From positions 1 through 64,000 of the IMG/VR virus record IMGVR_UViG_3300030109_002855: a DNA stretch of 64,000 nt; one strand, written 5' to 3'. Below are positions 7,474 to 24,491 of this stretch, one piece after another. Made by a program: the position numbers and the translations under genes. Source of the DNA: an uncultured virus (IMG/VR IMGVR_UViG_3300030109_002855). Taxonomy: Duplodnaviria; Heunggongvirae; Uroviricota; Caudoviricetes. Every line of letters begins with the position of its first letter. The stretch's first letter is position 1. Below the pieces are notes generated by a model. The model saw nothing but the letters and a program-made list of their open reading frames with translations. It did no database searches and was not told the origin of the DNA.

Positions 7474-10242
7474 TCACCTAAAGTTACCTTTCAAATAATA
7501 TACTGCCTCTTCAGATATACCATGCTTCTTAGCAATGTTCGACATTGAATCTAATTCAGTAACAATGGATTCTATATCATTAGCAGTCAATTCTATCTTG
7601 TGCATATCATGTACATTATTGATGGCACTATTAACATGATAGAAATTATCTAGTTTAGATATACCATAATACACAGGCTTATTCAGCATTTTTCTAATAG
7701 AGTCATGTGATTCTAATAAATTAACTTCAATATTACTTTTGATAAGTAATCCCTTAGTTGTTAAATTATCATAACTTTGTAAAAATGAAGACACTAAGTT
7801 TTTACTTGCAGATGTACCTTCTTCAGTTTTACCATATCCTGATGAAGCCAATCCTGAATCTTTTGCTCTAGGATTCAACAAAGCATCTCCCTGATAATCA
7901 CCTCTTCTTTTTCTAATATGTTTAACTAATACCGCCAAAGGATATAATTTATCGTTGTTATATTCTTTTGCTAATTCCTCAACAGGAGTACCATTAAACT
8001 CTACATCTATATTCAAATTATTTTTTTCCTTTATTTCTTGAAGTGCTGCACCAAACTCAATATCTATGTCTTTGGTATGTTGTGTTTCAAAAATTAAATC
8101 TAATTGTTTAGCGGCAAGTTCCATTTTAGATTTTATTCCTGATAATCTTGAGCCGGGTGCAACATTTCCAATCTCTTCTAATAATTCAGTTAATCTTGTC
8201 AATGCCTTAACTGATAATGTTGCAGTACCCATTTCAGCATAACGCGCTAATAATGTTGTGAATGCAGTAGGTTCTTTTCCTTCCTGAGACATGAAAAAGT
8301 CCATCACCTTATTAGTTACATATTCAGGCTCATCATCGAAAGGCATATTTTCACTAAGTAATGGTCTAATTACATAATCTATTAATCCATCAACATAGTC
8401 ATCATACTCATTTTCAATTTCAGTCAAAACTTCCTTTAACTTAGTCCCTTTCCTTCCAGTAAATAAAGAAGAATATGTTTGTTCCTTTGCTCTTGATGTA
8501 TCATCTTTACCAGTTCTACCTGCACTTGTTCTTGCGCCAGTAGGCATAGCAGCCTTTTCTGATGCAGTTCCTAAGTTTAGAATATCATACATTATATCAA
8601 AATGTTCTAATAATTTTTTATTTAGACCTTCTTTATTTTCTAAATTAAACTCATCAACTAATTTGTTTGTTAATGGGAGATAATAGAAGTCCTTTACTTT
8701 ATCTTCCGTAGCAAACTCTTCTAAATCATCTATGTAATTTTCCAATTTATTAAAATCAGAATCATTTAGTTCTACATCTATTTTAGTAGCATACTTTTTT
8801 GCTCTACGCTTTAATGATTGAATATCTTTCTTGAACGCAGCGACTCTTCCAAAAGCACCTTGTTCCCAAACATATTGAAATAGTGGGTCAACTTCCTTTA
8901 GAGTTTTGAAAGATTCTATATCTTGGAATAATGCGGTTTCAGTTTTATTACCAAACGCTTCTCTAGTTGCTAAATCTGTTTGAGTTTTTGTAGATTGTTC
9001 TGCAAACTCAGGTTCTATCCTAACATCCATTGAATCATAATCACTCGCAGCAGAAGTAGCAGTATCTAATTCAATACTTTGAAACGCCTCTTGGTCTTTC
9101 AAATACCCTTCTAAAAAGTCCCCTAACAATAATATCGCCTGAATACTTCTATCATCTTTTTCAATACGCTGCTTAGGTACTTTAACAATATAATTATCTT
9201 CATTAGTTAAACGATTATCCTTGAGTTGTGCGATTCGTTGAAGAATGCTAGGCATATTCTCCTCAGACACTCTTTCACTAGAAAGATATTTTTCATATGC
9301 TTCTATAAACTCATCTTGAGAAGAAATATATTTTTCAAAATCAGAATGTTTCTTTTCCCAATAATCATATATCTTATCTCTTCTATCTAATGACTTTAAA
9401 GATAGAGAACCAACTAATAAATCAACACTTACTTTCCTAATATCCTCTTGCCCTGAAACATTAATAGATTTCAATTTCCTAAGAATTGTTGATAATCGTG
9501 TTTTCAAATGTGAATAATTATTAGTCAAATCTTCTAGTTGTGAAATATGAGCGTTTAACTTTACAGGGTCGCTCAAATAATTATCTCTTCCTTCATCAGA
9601 TAAAGATATTTTATTAATTGGAGTTTTAATTCCTTTGATTGCAGTTTTAACTGTGACACTTTTACCATCAAAGAGTAGGTTTCTTAAAATAGGTCTTAGG
9701 GTATCTTTAATGATTGTATCTGTCGAGGCAATATCCCCAAAGGCAACCTTAAGTCCTTCTGATGAGGTTCTAGCATAATCATAGAATAAATCTAACACTT
9801 TTCTTTTGGTTGATTCAGGAAATTTTGCAAACCCTTTGTATTTACTTATCTCATCTCTTACTGCATTTTTATACGATGTTGGTGTAAACTCTCCTGTTTC
9901 TTTATCTGCTGTACTTCCAAAAAATTTAGGATTAATTTTAATATCTTGTGTTCTGCCTATTTTACCCGCCATACCAGTTTCAGGATTATCTTGTTTTTCT
10001 GCTAATAAAATTGCGTATGCTACATCATTAGGAGGTGTAGTTTCTCTTACATGTTGTATAAATTCCCTTCTTATAGGTTTAATATCAACATCTTCTTGTT
10101 CAGAACCACCTGTAACATAAGGCATTAATATTGAGTTTAATGAAATAGTTTTACCTCTTATTATCGCATCCATAACTTTATCAAAGAAATCTATATCTTC
10201 TAACCAAGTATCAAACTGCTCACTCATCCGATTCCACCTCAC
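7474..10242 (-). CDS. Large hypothetical protein, possibly an internal virion protein
   Basis: 922 aa charged helical ORF in the structural block; HTH-like C-terminus. Confidence 0.7.
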   Translation of the reverse strand: MRWNRMSEQFDTWLEDIDFFDKVMDAIIRGKTISLNSILMPYVTGGSEQEDVDIKPIRREFIQHVRETTPPNDVAYAILLAEKQDNPETGMAGKIGRTQDIKINPKFFGSTADKETGEFTPTSYKNAVRDEISKYKGFAKFPESTKRKVLDLFYDYARTSSEGLKVAFGDIASTDTIIKDTLRPILRNLLFDGKSVTVKTAIKGIKTPINKISLSDEGRDNYLSDPVKLNAHISQLEDLTNNYSHLKTRLSTILRKLKSINVSGQEDIRKVSVDLLVGSLSLKSLDRRDKIYDYWEKKHSDFEKYISSQDEFIEAYEKYLSSERVSEENMPSILQRIAQLKDNRLTNEDNYIVKVPKQRIEKDDRSIQAILLLGDFLEGYLKDQEAFQSIELDTATSAASDYDSMDVRIEPEFAEQSTKTQTDLATREAFGNKTETALFQDIESFKTLKEVDPLFQYVWEQGAFGRVAAFKKDIQSLKRRAKKYATKIDVELNDSDFNKLENYIDDLEEFATEDKVKDFYYLPLTNKLVDEFNLENKEGLNKKLLEHFDIMYDILNLGTASEKAAMPTGARTSAGRTGKDDTSRAKEQTYSSLFTGRKGTKLKEVLTEIENEYDDYVDGLIDYVIRPLLSENMPFDDEPEYVTNKVMDFFMSQEGKEPTAFTTLLARYAEMGTATLSVKALTRLTELLEEIGNVAPGSRLSGIKSKMELAAKQLDLIFETQHTKDIDIEFGAALQEIKEKNNLNIDVEFNGTPVEELAKEYNNDKLYPLAVLVKHIRKRRGDYQGDALLNPRAKDSGLASSGYGKTEEGTSASKNLVSSFLQSYDNLTTKGLLIKSNIEVNLLESHDSIRKMLNKPVYYGISKLDNFYHVNSAINNVHDMHKIELTANDIESIVTELDSMSNIAKKHGISEEAVYYLKGNFR

Positions 10243-11830
10243 TACTTTCTACTTTCTTGGTTGCTATTTTTAAATTTTCTAATACCTTTATAGGTTCAGT
10301 AACACCTTTAATATTTATTCGATAATTATCTTCTACAACTCTTTTCATAGACTCATAAATCATTTTTCGCAGACCTTGGCGTATCTTACTATACATGCCG
10401 TTATTAATTAGTTCTTTTAACATTAACTCATATTTTTCTTCTCTAGTTTCACTATCTTTTGCCTTTCTAAACTTACTATAATGATTACCAAACCCTTTAT
10501 TACTATCTACAATATCTAATTCTAAACCTATATCATATAACATAGGAATTAAATCTTTAAACATTCTAAATCTTTTATCATGCTGACCAAGTTCCTTTTT
10601 ATCTCTTTCTTGTATTTCAAAAAGAGTCTGTTTTATATCAATATCTTCTTCGGTAAATAATTTAGATAAATGTTTTAAATCATTTACAGATGACAATACA
10701 TAAACACCACCTCTTAATTCCATAGCAGAAAAAGCCTGTTCTCTTTCATCATAAGCAGTTAACCAATCTTCAAAATCTTGAGCATCTTCAAATCCATATT
10801 CATCATACGTTTCGTTATCTTCTTCACTTGATAAATTATTATAATCTTGAGCAGGTATTTTATTCAAAGTTACACTTGCAGATAACCTCCTTACATACTC
10901 TTCAAATTGTTTCTTTAAATCTACATCTTTAGCAATAGATTCTAGGAACTTATTATCTTGATATACCTTTTTATTTTTAATATTCTCTTTAGTGGTACTT
11001 ATTATGTTACTCATTATTTTTCTTAATCCTTCGGGAGCGTCACTACCTCTCAACCCTTTCAAAGCCTGTTTAGTAGCAATTGATAGTTTGGTTTTTTTTC
11101 TTTGAAAACCTCTAGATTCTAGATTACCCGAAGAATCAATAGGTAAGTCTTTAGTTTCTATAATGTAAATTAGAGTAGGAAATAACTCATTATAATTATC
11201 CCCAAGTAATTCTGTACTACCAAACATCTCTCTTTTATTTCTTTTTGGTATATTACTACTAGTAACAACTTTTCTCAAATATGCAATCATTTTTTGAGAG
11301 TTAGGTCTAGCACTTATTGTATATGTATCGGGTGCAGGTTTGTCAATTTTGTATGTATTTTTCAGCATTTCATATGCTTGAGTTTGTTTTGCTTCATCAA
11401 AATTTTTGATTGCATCAAACAATTTTGTTTTATTATCTCTTACATCCTTTACTCTATCTGCTTTTGTCTGAGGAGTTTTAGCAGATTCAGTCCAATCTGA
11501 TAAAGATTCTATGTCTCCTGATTTGAACTTCTCTAATATAGACGGGAATTGACTTCCTTTACTGCCACTAACTTGTTGACCTGTTTTGATATTCTTTATT
11601 GCCTCCAGTATTTTCTTAGCCCTATCATCTACTCCATCAATGGCTCTAATCTCAGCAAATGATTCAGGATTATCTAAAAAATATTGTATTGCTTTTCTTC
11701 TACCTGCAACATTTGCCGCAACAGTCTCCGAAATCAATTTATCCATTTGTTTATCAGTATAGAGATTGACTAAAATTCTCCTATAATCATCAGCAGTCTT
11801 TCTCGGAAGGGCTTTCAATAAATTAGTCAT
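10220..11830 (-). CDS. Hypothetical protein
   Basis: 536 aa ORF with AGGAGA RBS. Confidence 0.75.
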   Translation of the reverse strand: MTNLLKALPRKTADDYRRILVNLYTDKQMDKLISETVAANVAGRRKAIQYFLDNPESFAEIRAIDGVDDRAKKILEAIKNIKTGQQVSGSKGSQFPSILEKFKSGDIESLSDWTESAKTPQTKADRVKDVRDNKTKLFDAIKNFDEAKQTQAYEMLKNTYKIDKPAPDTYTISARPNSQKMIAYLRKVVTSSNIPKRNKREMFGSTELLGDNYNELFPTLIYIIETKDLPIDSSGNLESRGFQRKKTKLSIATKQALKGLRGSDAPEGLRKIMSNIISTTKENIKNKKVYQDNKFLESIAKDVDLKKQFEEYVRRLSASVTLNKIPAQDYNNLSSEEDNETYDEYGFEDAQDFEDWLTAYDEREQAFSAMELRGGVYVLSSVNDLKHLSKLFTEEDIDIKQTLFEIQERDKKELGQHDKRFRMFKDLIPMLYDIGLELDIVDSNKGFGNHYSKFRKAKDSETREEKYELMLKELINNGMYSKIRQGLRKMIYESMKRVVEDNYRINIKGVTEPIKVLENLKIATKKVESSEVESDE

Positions 11831-15999: not shown

Positions 16000-16767
16000 C
16001 TAATTCCATTTAATTTCTATTTTTTTATAATGGTCTAAAATTTCTTTTATAGCAACATCAAGCCCATACTCTTCTACTGGCATATCCCCATAATCATCTA
16101 TAAACACTGCTATACTATTACTCATATGAAACTCATAGGGATATTTTTCTGAATGTATGTGAAGACCTTTTCTTTTACTTACACCACCCCACTCATTAAA
16201 TTCTAAATTTCCTGCACCATTATATTCTCTAGGGTCATAATGTATTTCCCAATCACCAACTCTATATGGGTCTTTGATAAACATACCACCATTGACGACA
16301 GTAGATACTTGAGCAATTAAATCTAAAGCGCGACAATAAACTTCTTCAGGTATTTTCTCTGCCTGTTTATTCATTATATATCTTGATTCCTCTACTGTTA
16401 TTTCAAAATGATTTTTATTCTTAACACCTTTAGTCTCTACATTTGTACCAGTCATAGGATATAGATAAAATTGAGATACAAAATGGTCAGGGCCACGTAG
16501 TTCATTATAACCTGTGGGAGATGGTTCTCTAATAATACGATAATATTCAGTTCCTCCTCTATTCCCTTTATCACGAACTTTATCGAATATACTATTATCA
16601 TCATACAGTGGGGTATTTTTTATTTTATTTTGTAGTGCGAACATTCTATCTTTACAGTCATCTTTATCTTCATCAGGTTTGTTTACATCAAAAGGTTTCA
16701 CTTTGAACTTAGGTAAGTTAACTGTTCTCATCTCATTTTTCAAAATATCAAACCACATTATTTTCAC
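16000..16767 (-). CDS. Tandem paralog 5 (WF.ILKN...NLPKFKVKPF family)
   Basis: Shared leader and IPEEVYCRALDL motif. Confidence 0.85.
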   Translation of the reverse strand: MKIMWFDILKNEMRTVNLPKFKVKPFDVNKPDEDKDDCKDRMFALQNKIKNTPLYDDNSIFDKVRDKGNRGGTEYYRIIREPSPTGYNELRGPDHFVSQFYLYPMTGTNVETKGVKNKNHFEITVEESRYIMNKQAEKIPEEVYCRALDLIAQVSTVVNGGMFIKDPYRVGDWEIHYDPREYNGAGNLEFNEWGGVSKRKGLHIHSEKYPYEFHMSNSIAVFIDDYGDMPVEEYGLDVAIKEILDHYKKIEIKWN

Positions 16768-17525
16768 TCCGTAAACTTAATATTAATATTATTTATATAT
16801 TCTGCAATTAAATCTAACCCGTCTCTAATCACTTCCTGTTTGAAAGTATAGTTATTCTTGTACATATCAGACTTTTTAGTATTATATTTTAGGTCTACAT
16901 CTAAATCACAATCCATTCTACTGAGGATACTATTATTATTGTGTACTAATCCTCTTACTCTTTCAAAACTGTCTACCACACTAAAAAAACCATTTCTAAC
17001 ACCAAATGTACCATCATTATCGTTTCCAGTACTATCCTTAGTAAAATATATTATAGTACCATCTTCTGACTTAAATTCTACATCACGTTGTAGTACATCT
17101 AATATTCTGCAATAACTTTCTTCACTTATTTTAGTTTCACCAAAAGTTTTGGCTTCAGTGTCGTCACCAAAAGTTTCAGCAAATGACGCATTGTCAATTA
17201 CAACACGTATTCTAAAATAATAATTTCCAGTATAATTAGGATACATTTCAGGTTTTGGTATATATGTTATGCTTAATCTATGCAGATGGGCGTAACTTTT
17301 TTTGTAAATAAGCACATTAAAGTATGGGTTTTTTATTTTCTCTTCTAATGAACTTAGTTCCGATTGGTTAAAAAATTGCCTATCATAAAACTTCTTTTCT
17401 ATCTCTTTGACTTTTCGTTCGCAATCATCATCTTCTTCATCAGGTTTATTCGCATTAAAAGGTTTAACTTTAAATTTGGGTAAGTTAATACTCCTCATTT
17501 CATTTTTTAAAATATCAAACCACAT
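16764..17525 (-). CDS. Tandem paralog 4
   Basis: Shared leader and ISEESYCRILDV motif. Confidence 0.85.
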   Translation of the reverse strand: MWFDILKNEMRSINLPKFKVKPFNANKPDEEDDDCERKVKEIEKKFYDRQFFNQSELSSLEEKIKNPYFNVLIYKKSYAHLHRLSITYIPKPEMYPNYTGNYYFRIRVVIDNASFAETFGDDTEAKTFGETKISEESYCRILDVLQRDVEFKSEDGTIIYFTKDSTGNDNDGTFGVRNGFFSVVDSFERVRGLVHNNNSILSRMDCDLDVDLKYNTKKSDMYKNNYTFKQEVIRDGLDLIAEYINNINIKFTE

Positions 17526-17529
17526 ATAA

Positions 17530-18294
17530 TCACCATTCTATTTTTACGTCTTCAAAATGACTTTCTATTTTACTCAATGCCGCAGCAACACCTTTAGCAG
17601 TATCCCAACCAATTGGGGCGTTATCTTGACCTGTCTTCCACATATTTCCAAAATCTGACGTACGTACTGATAACGCGTTCCAAAGTGTAATATAATCTAC
17701 TTCACCCTTTGTTATAGTAATCGTTAGAAGTTTTCTTATACGTATCCCTGTCGGGTCTTCCATCACAAGGTCATTATTTTTATATTGTATTTTCCAATCG
17801 CCTACACTCTCACGGTCATATTGTCCAAACCTTTGTGGAGAACCCTTACTAATCATATCTAACGCCTTACAATAAACTTCTTCGGGTATTTCGTTCACAT
17901 CTTGGTCTATATCTTGATGGCTATCTTCCGTTATATATACCTCAACATGTGTATCAGGGTCGGCAAACCCATCACTTAGTGTAGGATATAAATGTAATTT
18001 TGCATAAAAAAGTTCGTCATCATCTATCATGCTATCCATTCCAAGATATTGAAATCTACCCTCATCTGCCATTTTTTCAATCTCATCAAATAAACTTTGT
18101 ATGCTACCTTTTGGATTATTGTGAACAAGTTTTATTTGCTCTGATTTTTTCAATACTTCATTTAAGAATCTATCTTTACAATCATTATCTTCTTCATCAG
18201 GCTTATTTACATTGAAGGGTTTAACCTTAAACTTGGGTAAATTAATACTCCGCATTTCATTTTTAAGAATATTAAACCAACTCATATAGACCAC
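17530..18294 (-). CDS. Tandem paralog 3
   Basis: Shared leader and IPEEVYCKALDM motif. Confidence 0.85.
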   Translation of the reverse strand: MVYMSWFNILKNEMRSINLPKFKVKPFNVNKPDEEDNDCKDRFLNEVLKKSEQIKLVHNNPKGSIQSLFDEIEKMADEGRFQYLGMDSMIDDDELFYAKLHLYPTLSDGFADPDTHVEVYITEDSHQDIDQDVNEIPEEVYCKALDMISKGSPQRFGQYDRESVGDWKIQYKNNDLVMEDPTGIRIRKLLTITITKGEVDYITLWNALSVRTSDFGNMWKTGQDNAPIGWDTAKGVAAALSKIESHFEDVKIEW

Positions 18295-18917
18295 TTCATT
18301 CTTTCAATAACCTCTGGAAGTCCTTCAGGAATATCATCATTACCAACCCACACTAAACCTAATTCTACTTTGATATACCTATCTTCGTTATAATTAACAT
18401 TATCTGTTAAAAAAAAGTATTGGTTAAATTCATTTATATAATGCTCGTTATAATCTTCTATGTTTGTAATCAACTTATGTTTAAGAAAATTTTCATATCG
18501 CATCTGATGTGATGTTCCGTTTGCATAAAAATTTTGATAATAAAATTCTTTCTTCGTTGAAGGTTGATTACTTTTCTCTTGAAGCAAATCTAATAACCTA
18601 CAATACGCCTCTTCAGGTAATAAATCTACATTTTTACTATGAACATTTTGTTGTAATCTAATAAATTTTTTAGCATCTTCTTTATGGTAATAGGTAATAT
18701 AACCCGTACCACTAGGTTTGTAAGAATCATACTCTTCCGATATCTTAGTTGGGGGTTGAAATCTTTTAGCAGTATTATACAATTCCATAATTTTATCTTT
18801 ACATCTAGTTTCTTCGTCTTCAACTTTTGGTTTGTCAAAGGGTTTGACCTTGAACTTAGGTAGATTAACAGCCCTTGCTTGGTTTTTTAAAACACCAAAC
18901 CAATTCATATAGGCCAC
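18282..18917 (-). CDS. Tandem paralog 2
   Basis: Shared leader and LPEEAYCRLLDL motif. Confidence 0.85.
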   Translation of the reverse strand: MAYMNWFGVLKNQARAVNLPKFKVKPFDKPKVEDEETRCKDKIMELYNTAKRFQPPTKISEEYDSYKPSGTGYITYYHKEDAKKFIRLQQNVHSKNVDLLPEEAYCRLLDLLQEKSNQPSTKKEFYYQNFYANGTSHQMRYENFLKHKLITNIEDYNEHYINEFNQYFFLTDNVNYNEDRYIKVELGLVWVGNDDIPEGLPEVIERMKWSI

Positions 18918-19522
18918 CTCATATTATCTGTTTCCTGTCTAAGTGCCTGACCAATCTTATCTGTTTCCTCAGAACTTAGTGGTGGGGTTTCATCGTACAT
19001 TCCATCTTTCCAATTATACCAATCATACCATAAAAGAGACAACCTTAAATTCAGTATATTATGACTCGTTTGTTTCGTGATAGCCAATTTTTGCATATAA
19101 AAATCTTCATTGTCACTTAAATCAACATTAATGTTATAATCCATTAAAGTAGTCTTACCTTCACCGGCTTTAAGTAAATCTAACGCTGTACAAAATACTT
19201 CTTCAGGTATATTATCTATGTCACCAACAGCATAAAAACGGTCAATCGTCACTCCCGTTCCTGTTTTTTTACCACCATAATACATCGAAGTATAACTACT
19301 ATCTTCTATTCTATGAATAGGGTTAATTTCTTTTTTAACTCTAACAAATTCACCACCTATTTCACTAGGAAACTGATACCTTCTAACAAAATCAGCAATT
19401 TCCATAATTTTATCTTTACATCTAGTTTCTTCTTCGTCCGGCTTTGCAGCATTGAACGGTTTGACTTTGAACTTAGGTAAATTAACTAAACCTTGGTTTT
19501 TTAGAATATTAAACCAAGTCAT
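18905..19522 (-). CDS. Tandem paralog 1
   Basis: Shared leader and IPEEVFCTALDL motif. Confidence 0.85.
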   Translation of the reverse strand: MTWFNILKNQGLVNLPKFKVKPFNAAKPDEEETRCKDKIMEIADFVRRYQFPSEIGGEFVRVKKEINPIHRIEDSSYTSMYYGGKKTGTGVTIDRFYAVGDIDNIPEEVFCTALDLLKAGEGKTTLMDYNINVDLSDNEDFYMQKLAITKQTSHNILNLRLSLLWYDWYNWKDGMYDETPPLSSEETDKIGQALRQETDNMRWPI

Positions 19523-20286
19523 TGTTCTGCCTCCTTTTCTGCTTCAGGTGTAAGATATGTGGGTAATTTACTATTGTTTGTTAGTCTTTCCTTCATTTTC
19601 CCATGAAACTTAGAAGCATCAGTATCTCCTTCTACTCTCTTCCTAGTCATCATTCTAGCATGATACTTTCGTTTTTCTTCATCTGTGAAATCATCGTATT
19701 CACTAACATCTCTATGTTGTAAATCTTTATACTCATTTCCTATTGATTCATCCCCTTCAAATGGTGGAGTATAGTTTGGATTATTCTTCATTCTCATATA
19801 CATTCTAAAAGCAATGTTACTTTTATCAGACCTTCCGTGTTCTGTAATTTCTTTATGATACAATCTAGCCCAATATTTGTGTTTCTCATCTCTTGAATAA
19901 TTATCATACATTTCTTTAGTAGTAGAAGGCATTCTCTCAATTGCATCATATTGTGGTTTAACCATAAATCTATTCTGTTCGTCTTCTAAAGAATAATAGA
20001 TTTCTTTAGTGGAATCACGTTTCGTTCTTTGCAATTGTCTATAATGAAATCTCTCTAATTCTCTAAGCCTTCTAATTTCGTCGTCTTGTAAAGGTGGGGC
20101 TTGAACTGCTCTTTCAACTTGTCTCCTATAATGGGCACGCATAGATTCATGATACTTTTCTTTATTTTTATCATCCATTCTATAATATTCATCCTTAGTT
20201 AAAGTAGACCATCTGCCGCCATAAGGATTAGGCATTTTTAGAATACTAAACCAACTACTACTCATGAAATCTACCCACAAAATCAA
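19519..20286 (-). CDS. Protein with three internal helical repeats and WFSILK tag
   Basis: Repeats EYYRMDDKNKEKYH / MYDNYSRDEKHKYW / EYDDFTDEEKRKYH. Confidence 0.8.
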   Translation of the reverse strand: MILWVDFMSSSWFSILKMPNPYGGRWSTLTKDEYYRMDDKNKEKYHESMRAHYRRQVERAVQAPPLQDDEIRRLRELERFHYRQLQRTKRDSTKEIYYSLEDEQNRFMVKPQYDAIERMPSTTKEMYDNYSRDEKHKYWARLYHKEITEHGRSDKSNIAFRMYMRMKNNPNYTPPFEGDESIGNEYKDLQHRDVSEYDDFTDEEKRKYHARMMTRKRVEGDTDASKFHGKMKERLTNNSKLPTYLTPEAEKEAEQ

Positions 20287-20370: not shown

Positions 20371-20794
20371 AACCCCGTGATTTGTCGAAAAATGGGCGGT
20401 CATTTTTTTGCCACTTGCGATTTTTTTTATTTTTAAATTAATGCATTCCCGATATAAGATTGTACAGTTAGCACATTTTATAGTTCCTACAAATACCACA
20501 ATTAGAATTTTGTTGCTACAAACACCACAATTAGATTATGCCTGTATCTTTATGCAAGAGCGTTTTTTTATTCTATTATATTTATATTCCCTTCTATTTA
20601 ATTAAATATAGTGCCTTTTGTACTAAATAAGATAAGATTAATCACAGTAAAAAAATCTTTTTGATTATTTTATAAAAAAAAATTTGAACCCTGCTACGCA
20701 CCCATACCCCAATTACTACCCATATGGTACGGTATAAAAAACGTACAACCATATGGTATGCGCTTTGCCGCAGACCTCATAAAAATAAAGAAAA

Positions 20795-21300
20795 ATCGGG
20801 TTAAGAGGTTAAACACACTTAATGAAAAGATAATCTCCTACCGCCGCGAACTCGGAGATTCAATCTTAACTAGTAAATGCTTTTGTTTAACATTAACCGT
20901 CTTTTCTTAGGTTGGTGCTTGCACCTTAATCGCTGCTTACAGACCTTGGAAATGTTAAGGTCGGGACTTACATAGGATAGATTGGATATGCCATTCTTGG
21001 TTGTTACCAAGTTGGCCTTCGGTTTATTCTCTATCAGACTTCACGAAGTTATTGTGTCGCTCCTCTATTGCCCGTTATGTTAATGGAGTAAGGAAGAGGC
21101 TGCGTACTATCCTCATCTTATTATACACGACTTCGCTGTCAATACCTTACTCCGTAGGAGTTTACATAAGGCGGTACTGCTTTCATATACTATTGTTCCT
21201 AAAGCACTCATGCATTAGTGGTTTACCTTTCGGTTAGGAACTCATAAACGTGGTTCAGTTTTAAGGAGTATCACCTCTTTAATACTCACACCTTATTCGA
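20795..21300 (-). ncRNA. Candidate ~500 nt structured non-coding RNA
   Basis: Higher GC than flanks, no convincing ORF, many stems, two long-range pairings, GAAA tetraloop and U-rich tail on the minus strand. Confidence 0.5.
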
Positions 21301-21303
21301 ATC

Positions 21304-21567
21304 TTATATTCCACCTGCTGACTGATTACGATAAATTGTAATAGCCTTTCTAAACTTAGAAGGTTGAAAGTTCTTATTTGTTTTTGTTAGTTTTTCAATT
21401 ATGATATCTACCTTATCAGGTGATATATCTACGTCAACAATCATACATACTAACCATTCAAAATGTTTCTTTGTGAATAATGAATACATATTATTCCCCC
21501 GTATATCCATCAAACCAACCATCACCACTTGTTTCAGGGTCTTGGCAATGTTCTTGTGCTTCTTCAA
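21304..21567 (-). CDS. Small hypothetical protein
   Basis: ORF track; true start is probably the internal MYSLF. Confidence 0.55.
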   Translation of the reverse strand: MKKHKNIAKTLKQVVMVGLMDIRGNNMYSLFTKKHFEWLVCMIVDVDISPDKVDIIIEKLTKTNKNFQPSKFRKAITIYRNQSAGGI

Positions 21568-22113: not shown

Positions 22114-22890
22114 TCATTCTTCATCACCATGTTTTAATCTTGCTTCTCTAGTTAATGCTACAATATCAGGACTACATTCTGTCTTTGATTCTGTAACATG
22201 CTCAAAATAACATTCTAGTTCAGGTTCTTGTGAAAAAGTAATTTCTCCGTCTGCAACATCTCTAAAACATTGTTGTAAAGCACTTTCAAATATATGTTGA
22301 ATTAAACCAACATCAGAAATAACATTATCAACCATTCTTTCTTTAATAGTGGCGGCTTTCTTTACTCTTGCAGATTCCCAACTAATATTAAATGTTAATA
22401 TTAGACCATCATTTGAATTTGTAAGTTTAGAAACTAAAATAACTTCTTCATCCTCAGGAATAGAATATTGAAGAAAATGTCCTTTAATATAATCACGATT
22501 AGAATTACCTACAAACTTAGATAATTCCTCAGTAGGCATATTTGTAAAATTAATTTGATTACCTTTTGGTTCATGCCAAACTGTGTTGATAATTTCTTCA
22601 GTAGTAGTAGTTAACTCAACATTTTCCCATCCATTATCTTTCATATTTTCAACTATACCAGCAGATAAATATTGATATGGTGAAGTAAACATTATTCTAC
22701 CATCAACTACACATTCAGATACAACAGTTGATTTTATTTTATCATATTGACCAACAGGAGATGTTTCATATATATTAGATACATTAATACCCCAATCATC
22801 TAATGAATGTAATAACTCATAATAATGATAATCTTTCAGTTTCGTGTTTGCATATTTCATGTTCATTGTTCTTTTGTATGTTATACTCAT
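22114..22890 (-). CDS. Hypothetical protein
   Basis: 258 aa ORF. Confidence 0.75.
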   Translation of the reverse strand: MSITYKRTMNMKYANTKLKDYHYYELLHSLDDWGINVSNIYETSPVGQYDKIKSTVVSECVVDGRIMFTSPYQYLSAGIVENMKDNGWENVELTTTTEEIINTVWHEPKGNQINFTNMPTEELSKFVGNSNRDYIKGHFLQYSIPEDEEVILVSKLTNSNDGLILTFNISWESARVKKAATIKERMVDNVISDVGLIQHIFESALQQCFRDVADGEITFSQEPELECYFEHVTESKTECSPDIVALTREARLKHGDEE

Positions 22891-23237: not shown

Positions 23238-23765
23238 TTATTCTTCATCTTCCCCCTGAGAAGAACCATTTACCAAAACAACGGGTGATTCCCCGTCCCA
23301 AAGGTAAGGTGCGTTATCTGTATTTTTGGTAAAATCTGAATATGCTTTATTCATCATTTGTCTACGGCTTGCGGTATTTGCATCAGCAAACTCAGTTGCA
23401 TCAGTATAATTTCCGCCACCGGATTTACCGTGTCTCATTTCTAGTGTGCGTATTGATTCGTTTTCATTGAAAAGTGTAACCATTGCAGCATGATAAGCGG
23501 ATAAAACCGCATCTCTTGCAATAAGTACAGCATCAGGCATAGTTGAACCTCTACCTGACCTAAATGGCTTATCTGCGATATCAGCGAAACATGTTCTGAT
23601 AGCACCGTAAAGTGCATCTCTAGACTCAGGTTTCTTATCAGCAGCAGCGATTAATTGCGGTACTGCAATTAACTCAATATTCTGTTGCCAATCAGGATGG
23701 CTTTCAAACCATGCCTCAATTAGTGTTTTCTTACTTTCCCATTGTTCATTTGTCATATCTGTCAT
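23238..23765 (-). CDS. Hypothetical protein, paralog A of a divergent pair
   Basis: Shares QLIA..D.KPE, HGKS, WDG and SSQ.EE with 24018-24491. Confidence 0.8.
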   Translation of the reverse strand: MTDMTNEQWESKKTLIEAWFESHPDWQQNIELIAVPQLIAAADKKPESRDALYGAIRTCFADIADKPFRSGRGSTMPDAVLIARDAVLSAYHAAMVTLFNENESIRTLEMRHGKSGGGNYTDATEFADANTASRRQMMNKAYSDFTKNTDNAPYLWDGESPVVLVNGSSQGEDEE

Positions 23766-24017
23766 AATAATTCCTCTTTTTATCTCCTTTGTTAAGTATC
23801 TATTCAACCCCACTTAACATAATATATAGTGGATATAGGGTACTTAAGGGTGTTCTCAAAGTACCACACCATATGGTTGTAATACATAATATTTCATTAT
23901 ACATTTAAATAAATACTACCATATGGTTCTACTTTGATAGAACCCTTTAATAAGCCCTACATCGGCTATTATTATGCTCACAAAGGCAATCAGTTAATGA
24001 TAATAAAGGTGTTAAAA

Positions 24018-24491
24018 ATGGAAACATGGGAAGATACAAAAAAGAAAGTTGAAACAATGATAGCGGCAGATGATAGAGGTTCACTCGATGAAGGTCTAAA
24101 AGTTGTAGCCGTACAATTAATTGCAACAGGAGATAGTAAACCTGAGATGCAAGAACAAATGACTAAGACTCTAAAAGAGGCTCTTAGAGGATGTCACGGA
24201 TATCCTTGGAGAAGAGGTGGTGGAGGTATTCTTTCTGCTGCTGCTCTTAGTACAGTGGATGCAATAGTAGCAGATGTTGAAACAGCATTTGCAAATGCAT
24301 TCGATTCTTGTGTCGGTGTTCAAGCATTACTATTGCCTCACGGTAAAAGCAAGAATACTCATTTCGCAAATGGTGCAGATTATGCAAGCACACTCACAAA
24401 GACAATTCGTAAAAACGCAACTACGCTTTACAAAGCAGGTTGGGATGGTTCTCTAGATGGTCTAGGGATTTCTTCACAGGAGGAAGAATAA
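24018..24491 (+). CDS. Hypothetical protein, paralog B of a divergent pair
   Basis: ATG at 24018 after AGGTG RBS; motifs shared with paralog A. Confidence 0.8.
   Translation: METWEDTKKKVETMIAADDRGSLDEGLKVVAVQLIATGDSKPEMQEQMTKTLKEALRGCHGYPWRRGGGGILSAAALSTVDAIVADVETAFANAFDSCVGVQALLLPHGKSKNTHFANGADYASTLTKTIRKNATTLYKAGWDGSLDGLGISSQEEE

Follow-up and report, generated by a model that had tools for sequence, protein, structure and literature searches.

The window, by which we mean the whole stretch of 64,000 nucleotides that was analysed, covers the first 64 kb of a virus record 71.5 kb long. It encodes a portal, a terminase, a split family B polymerase and a clamp loader, together with an ATP-dependent ligase, a TFIIB-type zinc-ribbon protein and an ERCC4 nuclease. 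Going by this gene content and by background knowledge we take the genome to be magrovirus-like, that is, a virus of marine group II archaea; the host is probably a marine archaeon. The leftward early operon finishes with a 61-aa ORF that has relatives in 18 rows when the ORFs of 51 loci are compared, and no named family in Atlas. Directly after it lies a stretch with 5–20 stop codons in each of the six frames. Three overlapping ORFs within it (78, 46 and 50 aa) find no counterpart (E up to 0.01) when searched against the ORFs of those 51 loci, so no conserved ORF explains the region: it is non-coding. The next ORF begins ∼500 nt beyond the terminal hairpin and U tract that close the stretch. 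A first-pass annotation had read the region as one large pseudoknotted RNA; the features recognised here are as follows.

21304..21489, minus strand: last small ORF of the early operon, 61 aa, with its stop codon immediately before the array
21298..21299, minus strand: empty slot, occupied by the 136-nt unit B in L007, L010, L011 and L019, and without B in the window and L009
21167..21295, minus strand: unit C, member of a new ten-member family, C/H
21295-21291/21171-21167, minus strand: P1 of C
21287-21281/21272-21266, minus strand: P2 hairpin of C, with an A-rich linker after it
21275-21273 with 21254-21252, minus strand: pseudoknot of C, made by the P2 loop
21259-21256/21179-21176, minus strand: P3 of C
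21241-21195, minus strand: P4 domain of C, variable
21154..21166, minus strand: short C/A-rich linker that forms the left-hand junction of the E+D insertion (alignment with relatives, flank listing)
21085..21153, minus strand: unit E, a new three-way junction (covariance, model search)
21153-21145/21093-21085, minus strand: P1 of E
21141-21138/21131-21128, minus strand: P2 of E
21114-21111/21099-21096, minus strand: P3 of E
21136-21134 with 21104-21102, minus strand: invariant loop-loop match of E, 3 bp
20959..21076, minus strand: unit D, 118 nt with sharp bounds, common to distant viruses
21074-21071/20965-20962, minus strand: closing stem of D
21048-21044 with 21021-21017, minus strand: local pairing of D
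21016-20990, minus strand: covarying hairpin of D
20948..20958, minus strand: short C/A-rich linker that forms the right-hand junction of the E+D insertion
20797..20925, minus strand: unit A, composed of a small hairpin with covariation (20925-20914) and, terminally, a long irregular one (20898-20799)
20781..20796, minus strand: U-rich tract, seen in the sequence and kept in relatives
20749..20785, plus strand: one copy of the palindromic DNA motif characteristic of early regions in these viruses

We hold with confidence that the region is a minus-strand row of four units, in the order C (21295-21167), E (21153-21085), D (21076-20959) and A (20925-20797), and not one 500-nt RNA. Each unit is closed by a stem of its own, short C/A-rich linkers stand between them, and among magrovirus-like genomes units are gained, lost and exchanged one at a time. 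Five close relatives hold the region (L007, L009, L010, L011 and L019; L008 ends short of it), and in all five the middle 214 nt (20952-21165), which comprise E and D, are missing: the window lineage has both units between two linkers where the relatives have neither. Seven nucleotides of the right-hand linker repeat the linker between E and D. Unit B, carried by four of the five relatives, is a further variable element.

The two middle units also travel separately between distant viruses. With the window, L140, L124 and L101 have only 21076-20953 in common. Over unit D the identity is 96.6% with the L140 copy and 90.9% with the L124 copy (91–97% overall); the DNA of the neighbouring 64-aa gene is 53.8% and 58.2% identical, respectively. 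At the very position that D occupies in L140, the related L163 has no copy. The core of D is invariant and the unit nearly so, with four sequence types in all. Unit E, of which there are five sequence types, was found by covariance-model search in 5 of 49 records; in the stretches compared, D is absent from these five, and E from the distant D carriers.

These comparisons draw on several searches. A DNA search of 40 records returned five real matches (C and A only) and three short chance rows, and a metagenome scan returned 63 stretches of which four were real: L140, L124, L101 and L148, the last a near-identical strain of the window virus. In four exact-pattern searches, that metagenome scan among them, 5/5, 2/7, 59/63 and 5/6 of the matches were discarded as chance; an exact-pattern search of genome contigs, including an 18-nt pattern of D, found nothing, and blastn against 50,697 annotated phages gave no match. 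A short C/A-rich stretch usually comes after a unit. The linker pattern is present at 10 of 21 unit ends and at 4 of 20 ends of viral tRNAs (background 0.8%), figures that are suggestive only, because the pattern was drawn post hoc from these same flanks and overlaps the tRNA end.

Unit B (12545-12685 in L007; also L010, L011 and L019) has covarying-looking stems, and its loop resembles the loop of E's P3.

A model from five close C copies had a single match in 685 kb, which is exactly unit H of L166 (18.4 bits, E 0.26); in a smaller search the L212 copy scored E 0.00065 and the L166 copy E 0.013. Rows for L207 and L124 were judged chance, and L238 (E 2.1) was kept after its sequence had been read. 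A structural descriptor, written after the model, found eight sites in 1.72 Mb, all of them in these arrays, and none in one shuffle; it missed L184 and L238, which were added to the family by reading. Across the ten members of C/H, paired cells number 49/50 in P1, 60/60 in P2 and 38/40 in P3, with double changes at 3 of 5, 4 of 6 and 3 of 4 positions. These counts lean to the favourable side, since helix placement relied on a script fitted to the fold and five members are closely related to one another. In the pseudoknot the two-pair GG/CC core never varies and so is not proven; beside it, one pair shows a double change and another position is unpaired in six of the ten. The junctions differ between members. 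Unit D is at most a possible member of this family: it shares a short 5′ stretch and its 3′ end with the L166 type, and both model and descriptor missed it.

The three helices of E have 93.6% of 94 cells paired and four pairs with double changes; seven of 500 shuffles were as high on percent paired, and slid controls reached at most 45%. The three loop-loop pairs never vary and therefore are not proven; they could form within or between molecules. For the helices of C and A together the figure is 94.8%, equalled by none of 500 shuffles, and six of the nine helices have no unpaired cell. Unit A is found only in the five close relatives.

The seven stems and the GAAA hairpin of the first-pass annotation all lie where it had placed them, and its view that the leftward early operon finishes, on the minus strand, in structured RNA that codes for no protein is supported. 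Its stem 21195/21234 is preserved, with 8/8 pairs kept in 6/6 sequences and one double change, and the P4 stem of C appears in the minimum-energy fold; its pairing 21085/21145 persists as the closing stem of E, and its hairpin 20996/21006 is kept, with two doubly changed pairs. Others fare less well: the outer 5′ strand of stem 20942/20957 is present in one of six sequences, the outer tested pair of the ACC-GAAA-GGU hairpin is broken in three of six, and stem 20832/20854, although present, is partly broken in relatives. The pairings that had made one RNA of the region, 21044/21130 and 20974/21107, join D and E. They are not conserved, because the two units occur apart, both paired segments are changed in E copies elsewhere, and D has a local partner (pairing probability 0.92, against 0.00 and 0.05 for the E–D pairs). 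Pseudoknots are present and have comparative support inside single units, and it is the crossings between D and E that fall; covariation is seen inside C/H, E, the D hairpin and A.

The absence of known RNAs that had been noted also stands. ARAGORN reports 0 tRNA genes in the window, and the region has no Rfam match at gathering score or at E up to 10. Readings by eye against general features of RNase P, SRP, group I/II introns and bulge-helix-bulge introns, and of hammerhead and hairpin ribozymes, were dropped; none scores in Rfam.

Folding adds to this picture. The region has 14 perfect stems of at least 7 bp, compared with 7.2±2.9 in 40 shuffles, and folds as a whole with z −2.63 on the minus and −2.09 on the plus strand (2 of 100 shuffles as good on each): the excess is real and modest. 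At 58 tested pairs, G-U types outnumber A-C types by 11 to 3, which favours the minus strand (extra G-U positions there: five in E, one in D), and in the contexts read D, E and H run in the sense of the upstream ORF. Against the minus strand, the isolated E unit reaches a better fold on plus (z −3.41 versus −1.87), and the palindrome at 20749 directs its promoter-like arm at the array in antisense. A nested ensemble of the whole array gives the covarying helices of C and E probabilities of only 0.01–0.10, so folding may need processing or a co-transcriptional order, or the model may be incomplete.

Metatranscriptomes were drawn from 23 runs, 6 of them RNA (shares 0.13–0.16); four RNA runs (X15, X17, X19 and X20) were used and two small-share runs (X16 and X18) left out. 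All four have contigs over C or D, evidence that carries no strand, ends or level and in which DNA is possible. Contigs of 304, 392 and 861 nt in X17, X19 and X20 cover C in the B-bearing form; a 596-nt contig in X15 holds D with L124-type indels. Those of X15 and X20 cross ORF-side sequence and array, and would equally fit an unprocessed trailer. The late genes at 18000-20170 have sparse contig cover in the RNA runs, which we do not count as a finding.

As had been noted, the minus strand finishes in U tracts (20796-20781). This tract is likely the transcript end, and the arrays of L124 and L205 likewise finish in a long hairpin and a U tract. The window array thus presents several distinct structured RNAs clustered in one non-coding stretch, and we are equally sure in calling it a structured-RNA island, a row of small self-contained RNA units in what would be the 3′ trailer of a transcript made early by the virus.

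The palindromic motif overlapping the U tract consists of an 8-bp core and two 5-bp arms, followed by a TATA-like stretch; the promoter-like arm of the copy at 20749..20785 points at the array, antisense to it. Copies in the window start at 20720, 20749, 23144, 23869, 23919 and 24594. The motif also occurs in L024–L029 and 47 stretches, with up to about 20 copies per early region, and sits ahead of early genes and RNA arrays in these viruses; it is likely a binding site for a putative dimeric viral regulator. In another group of these viruses (L206, L221, L224 and L226), gene-poor stretches of 1–1.7 kb are cut by many palindrome copies and probably hold more RNA units. A sigma-70 promoter scan (4 sites, 8.2 expected) was uninformative.

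Several proteins of the neighbourhood deserve mention. A 258-aa protein (22114-22890, minus strand) is kept beside arrays in many records and has no Pfam or PHROG family and no Atlas match; its model, though confident (pLDDT 79, best structural Z 5.5), has no clear fold match, and a role as processing enzyme was dropped for want of either family or fold. Five tandem paralogues of 205-255 aa occupy 16000-19522 (minus strand), with a common N-terminal motif and divergent bodies, in copy numbers that differ among relatives; a scan of one of them (16000-16767) assigned it to neither a Pfam nor a PHROG family. A further paralogue pair, divergently transcribed (23238-23813, minus strand; 23934-24491, plus strand), is 25% identical and of no known family. 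Directly upstream of the D-bearing array, under a promoter-like motif of its own, lies an 81-aa basic ORF (L124, 2046-2291; also L205), a possible RNA-binding partner.

In other records the matching place holds arrays of further units: G, H, F, manA and a unit shared by L124, L101 and L205. Some records have a single unit there or none; the first slot is vacant in L227, and L028 has no array. Unit F, about 160 nt (2470-2630 in L140), also occurs in L163, L166, L172, L175, L176, L184, L213, L216, L227, L228 and L212; it is the most constant unit of the clade's arrays and has no Rfam match. One set of 38 loci gave 14 strong rows for it, part of them from the same records. Unit G, a 30-nt candidate H-type pseudoknot with an A-rich loop, lies just past the stop codon in L140 (2301-2328), L163, L172, L213, L216 and L228.

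Rfam models run on the window and the relatives' arrays gave only manA and one tRNA at gathering score; weak snoRNA and sRNA rows were taken as chance. In L025–L027 manA occupies the same early region (83–86 bits), with a promoter-like motif of its own upstream of the array; the L238 copy is divergent and, at 42 bits, under the gathering score. The window is without manA (RF01745), with no match at the gathering score of 55.2 bits or at E up to 10. The minus-strand sites are 902-1106 in L027, 5085-5291 in L025, 5405-5610 in L026 and 388-624 in L238. In these probable archaeal viruses manA heads arrays of 600–900 nt with further units, some having C/D-box-like stretches. In L238 (38-624) two arrays converge: one strand bears a C/H unit, the other manA with an F-like unit, and the palindromic motif lies between them.

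How might such arrays work? The early transcript would run through the small ORFs into the array and terminate where hairpin A and the U tract lie. Cutting or trimming at the linkers by host nucleases would leave stable RNAs of 70–130 nt. Release of the units as separate RNAs is, on balance, probable. Once released they would work in trans at an early stage of infection: as decoys or mimics they would bind RNA-binding proteins of the host, most likely defence nucleases or toxins, and host–virus conflict would drive cassette turnover through recombination at the linkers. This complete reading, release followed by decoy action on the host, we favour tentatively. It is suggested by four circumstances: there is no downstream gene to regulate, unrelated folds interchange, D is nearly identical across distant viruses, and there is precedent. 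Against it, a host target or partner protein was not found, the function rests on analogy, and known RNA antitoxin mimics repeat one unit rather than a mix. Exact patterns found no host counterpart of the units in genome contigs; the one 14-nt antisense match elsewhere in G000 was taken as chance.

It is conceivable, if rather speculative, that in viruses of marine group II archaea there are counter-defence islands made of RNA only. These would be collections of small folded RNAs unrelated to one another, each directed against a different host defence protein or able to join in RNA-only particles, and shuffled by recombination at short linkers as anti-defence protein genes are.

Alternatively, the units could work in cis within the early mRNA: stacked in its 3′ trailer, they would block nucleases or stabilise the message, much as flavivirus 3′ UTRs carry tandem exonuclease-resistant folds. 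Such a role fits the compact pseudoknots, the RNA contigs that span ORF and array, and the sense orientation and 3′ placement of the units seen in the window, in L140 and L124 and in the L163 group. We nonetheless think it unlikely, given that many unrelated folds occupy the same slot, that the slot can be empty (L227) or the array lacking altogether (L028), and that the manA array of L025–L027 follows its own promoter-like motif.

A further reading takes its cue from manA, described in the available part of one report as forming 8-, 10- and 60-mers in vitro through kissing loops (10.64898/2026.07.01.735769): the units might build RNA-only assemblies, cages or oligomers, by intermolecular loop-loop contacts. 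The presence of manA in these arrays, the complementary and invariant loops of E, and the self-complementary stretches of 6–8 nt that recur in C and A point the same way; yet the window is without manA and the loops of E can pair within one molecule, and we regard assembly as improbable.

Lower still we place the proposal that the array, or the end of the mRNA, is cut by a new self-cleaving ribozyme formed by at least one of the units. The succession of elements in C/H recalls pistol, and D is nearly invariant, but no known family (hammerhead, HDV-like, twister, pistol, hatchet or hairpin) is listed within the E limits used (up to 10, 10, 5 and 2), the C/H junctions vary, and RNA contigs cross unit C with no listed break.

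What remains of the original proposal is one large RNA with optional peripheral domains and long-range pairs. One transcript is likely, C and A occur together in 6/6 close genomes, and a C loop is complementary over 7 nt, invariantly, to the 3′ end of A. The same loop, however, serves the C/H family's own pseudoknot, C-family units occur without A, D without E and E without D, and the pairing probabilities given above favour D's local partner. This makes the large RNA very improbable; for E–D it is already largely refuted. No more credible are riboswitch-like aptamers that soak up small molecules such as immune signals, for although sizes and folds are aptamer-like and manA was proposed as a riboswitch candidate (PMC2864571, as far as the text was available), there is neither an expression platform nor a downstream gene, nor any Rfam riboswitch match.

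Overall, the sequence comparisons indicate a viral structured-RNA island with two or more new families that show covariation, and with a mobile unit that hardly varies. A single doubtful RNA is replaced by small, bounded families (C/H with ten members, E with five types, D with four) for which synthesis, probing and structure determination are feasible, and their cassette behaviour supplies natural presence/absence variants and implies that units work alone. That manA stands at array sites with no metabolic gene to regulate argues against a riboswitch and, taken with the cage structures, makes its function newly testable. Were counter-defence islands real, manA and its neighbours, without a role since 2010, would gain a testable one; were the units decoys, they would point to RNA-binding defence systems not yet known in abundant, uncultured ocean archaea.

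In the literature searched, with most subscription journals outside its scope, arrays of this kind in these viruses were not found described. Two magrovirus papers (PMC5434244, PMC11706807) report tRNAs and, in the parts available, use no non-coding RNA terms. Short candidates of 35–93 nt from marine viruses with euryarchaeal hosts are listed in PMC10690425 (available in part), and some of the units may already stand in its catalogue without description.

Resemblances to known systems are partial. The SRP Alu domain is a three-way junction with loop-loop pairing, as is E, but the junction sequence is not conserved in E and there is no Rfam score. The pistol ribozyme has the order hairpin, A-rich linker, crossing helix and pseudoknot; C/H shares it, and differs by an extra closing stem, a pseudoknot of 3–4 bp and the lack of an Rfam score. 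GOLLD, ROOL and OLE are likewise virus-borne, non-coding and pseudoknotted, at a total of 500–640 nt; the window, in contrast, matches none of their Rfam models, has no conserved long-range core or whole-length pairings, and consists of parts that move separately.

Other parallels are the pseudo-ToxI repeats of phage PhiTE (PMC3475682) and abiF, whose motifs neutralise a toxin (10.1101/2025.04.15.648962): to judge from the available parts of these sources, both are phage-borne tandem small RNAs whose number changes by recombination. Such antitoxin mimics repeat one unit that copies a known host antitoxin, whereas the window units differ from one another. manA itself, proposed in PMC2864571 as a cis-regulatory candidate, is marine, viral and compact, with several stems and loop-loop contacts, and has the same genomic role in L025–L027 and L238; no window unit scores as manA, and sizes and folds differ. 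In the T4-like cyanophage S-CREM1, wcaG, manA and abiF lie within 9745-10567, about 800 nt (PMC9964418, Table 4). Unit-by-unit gain, loss and linker exchange, seen in the window viruses, do not figure for that cluster in the available part of the paper. Here too several structured RNAs share less than 1 kb of a marine virus, and manA stands in the matching region of other magrovirus-like records; in the window, by contrast, the host is probably archaeal and no unit matches any of these families.
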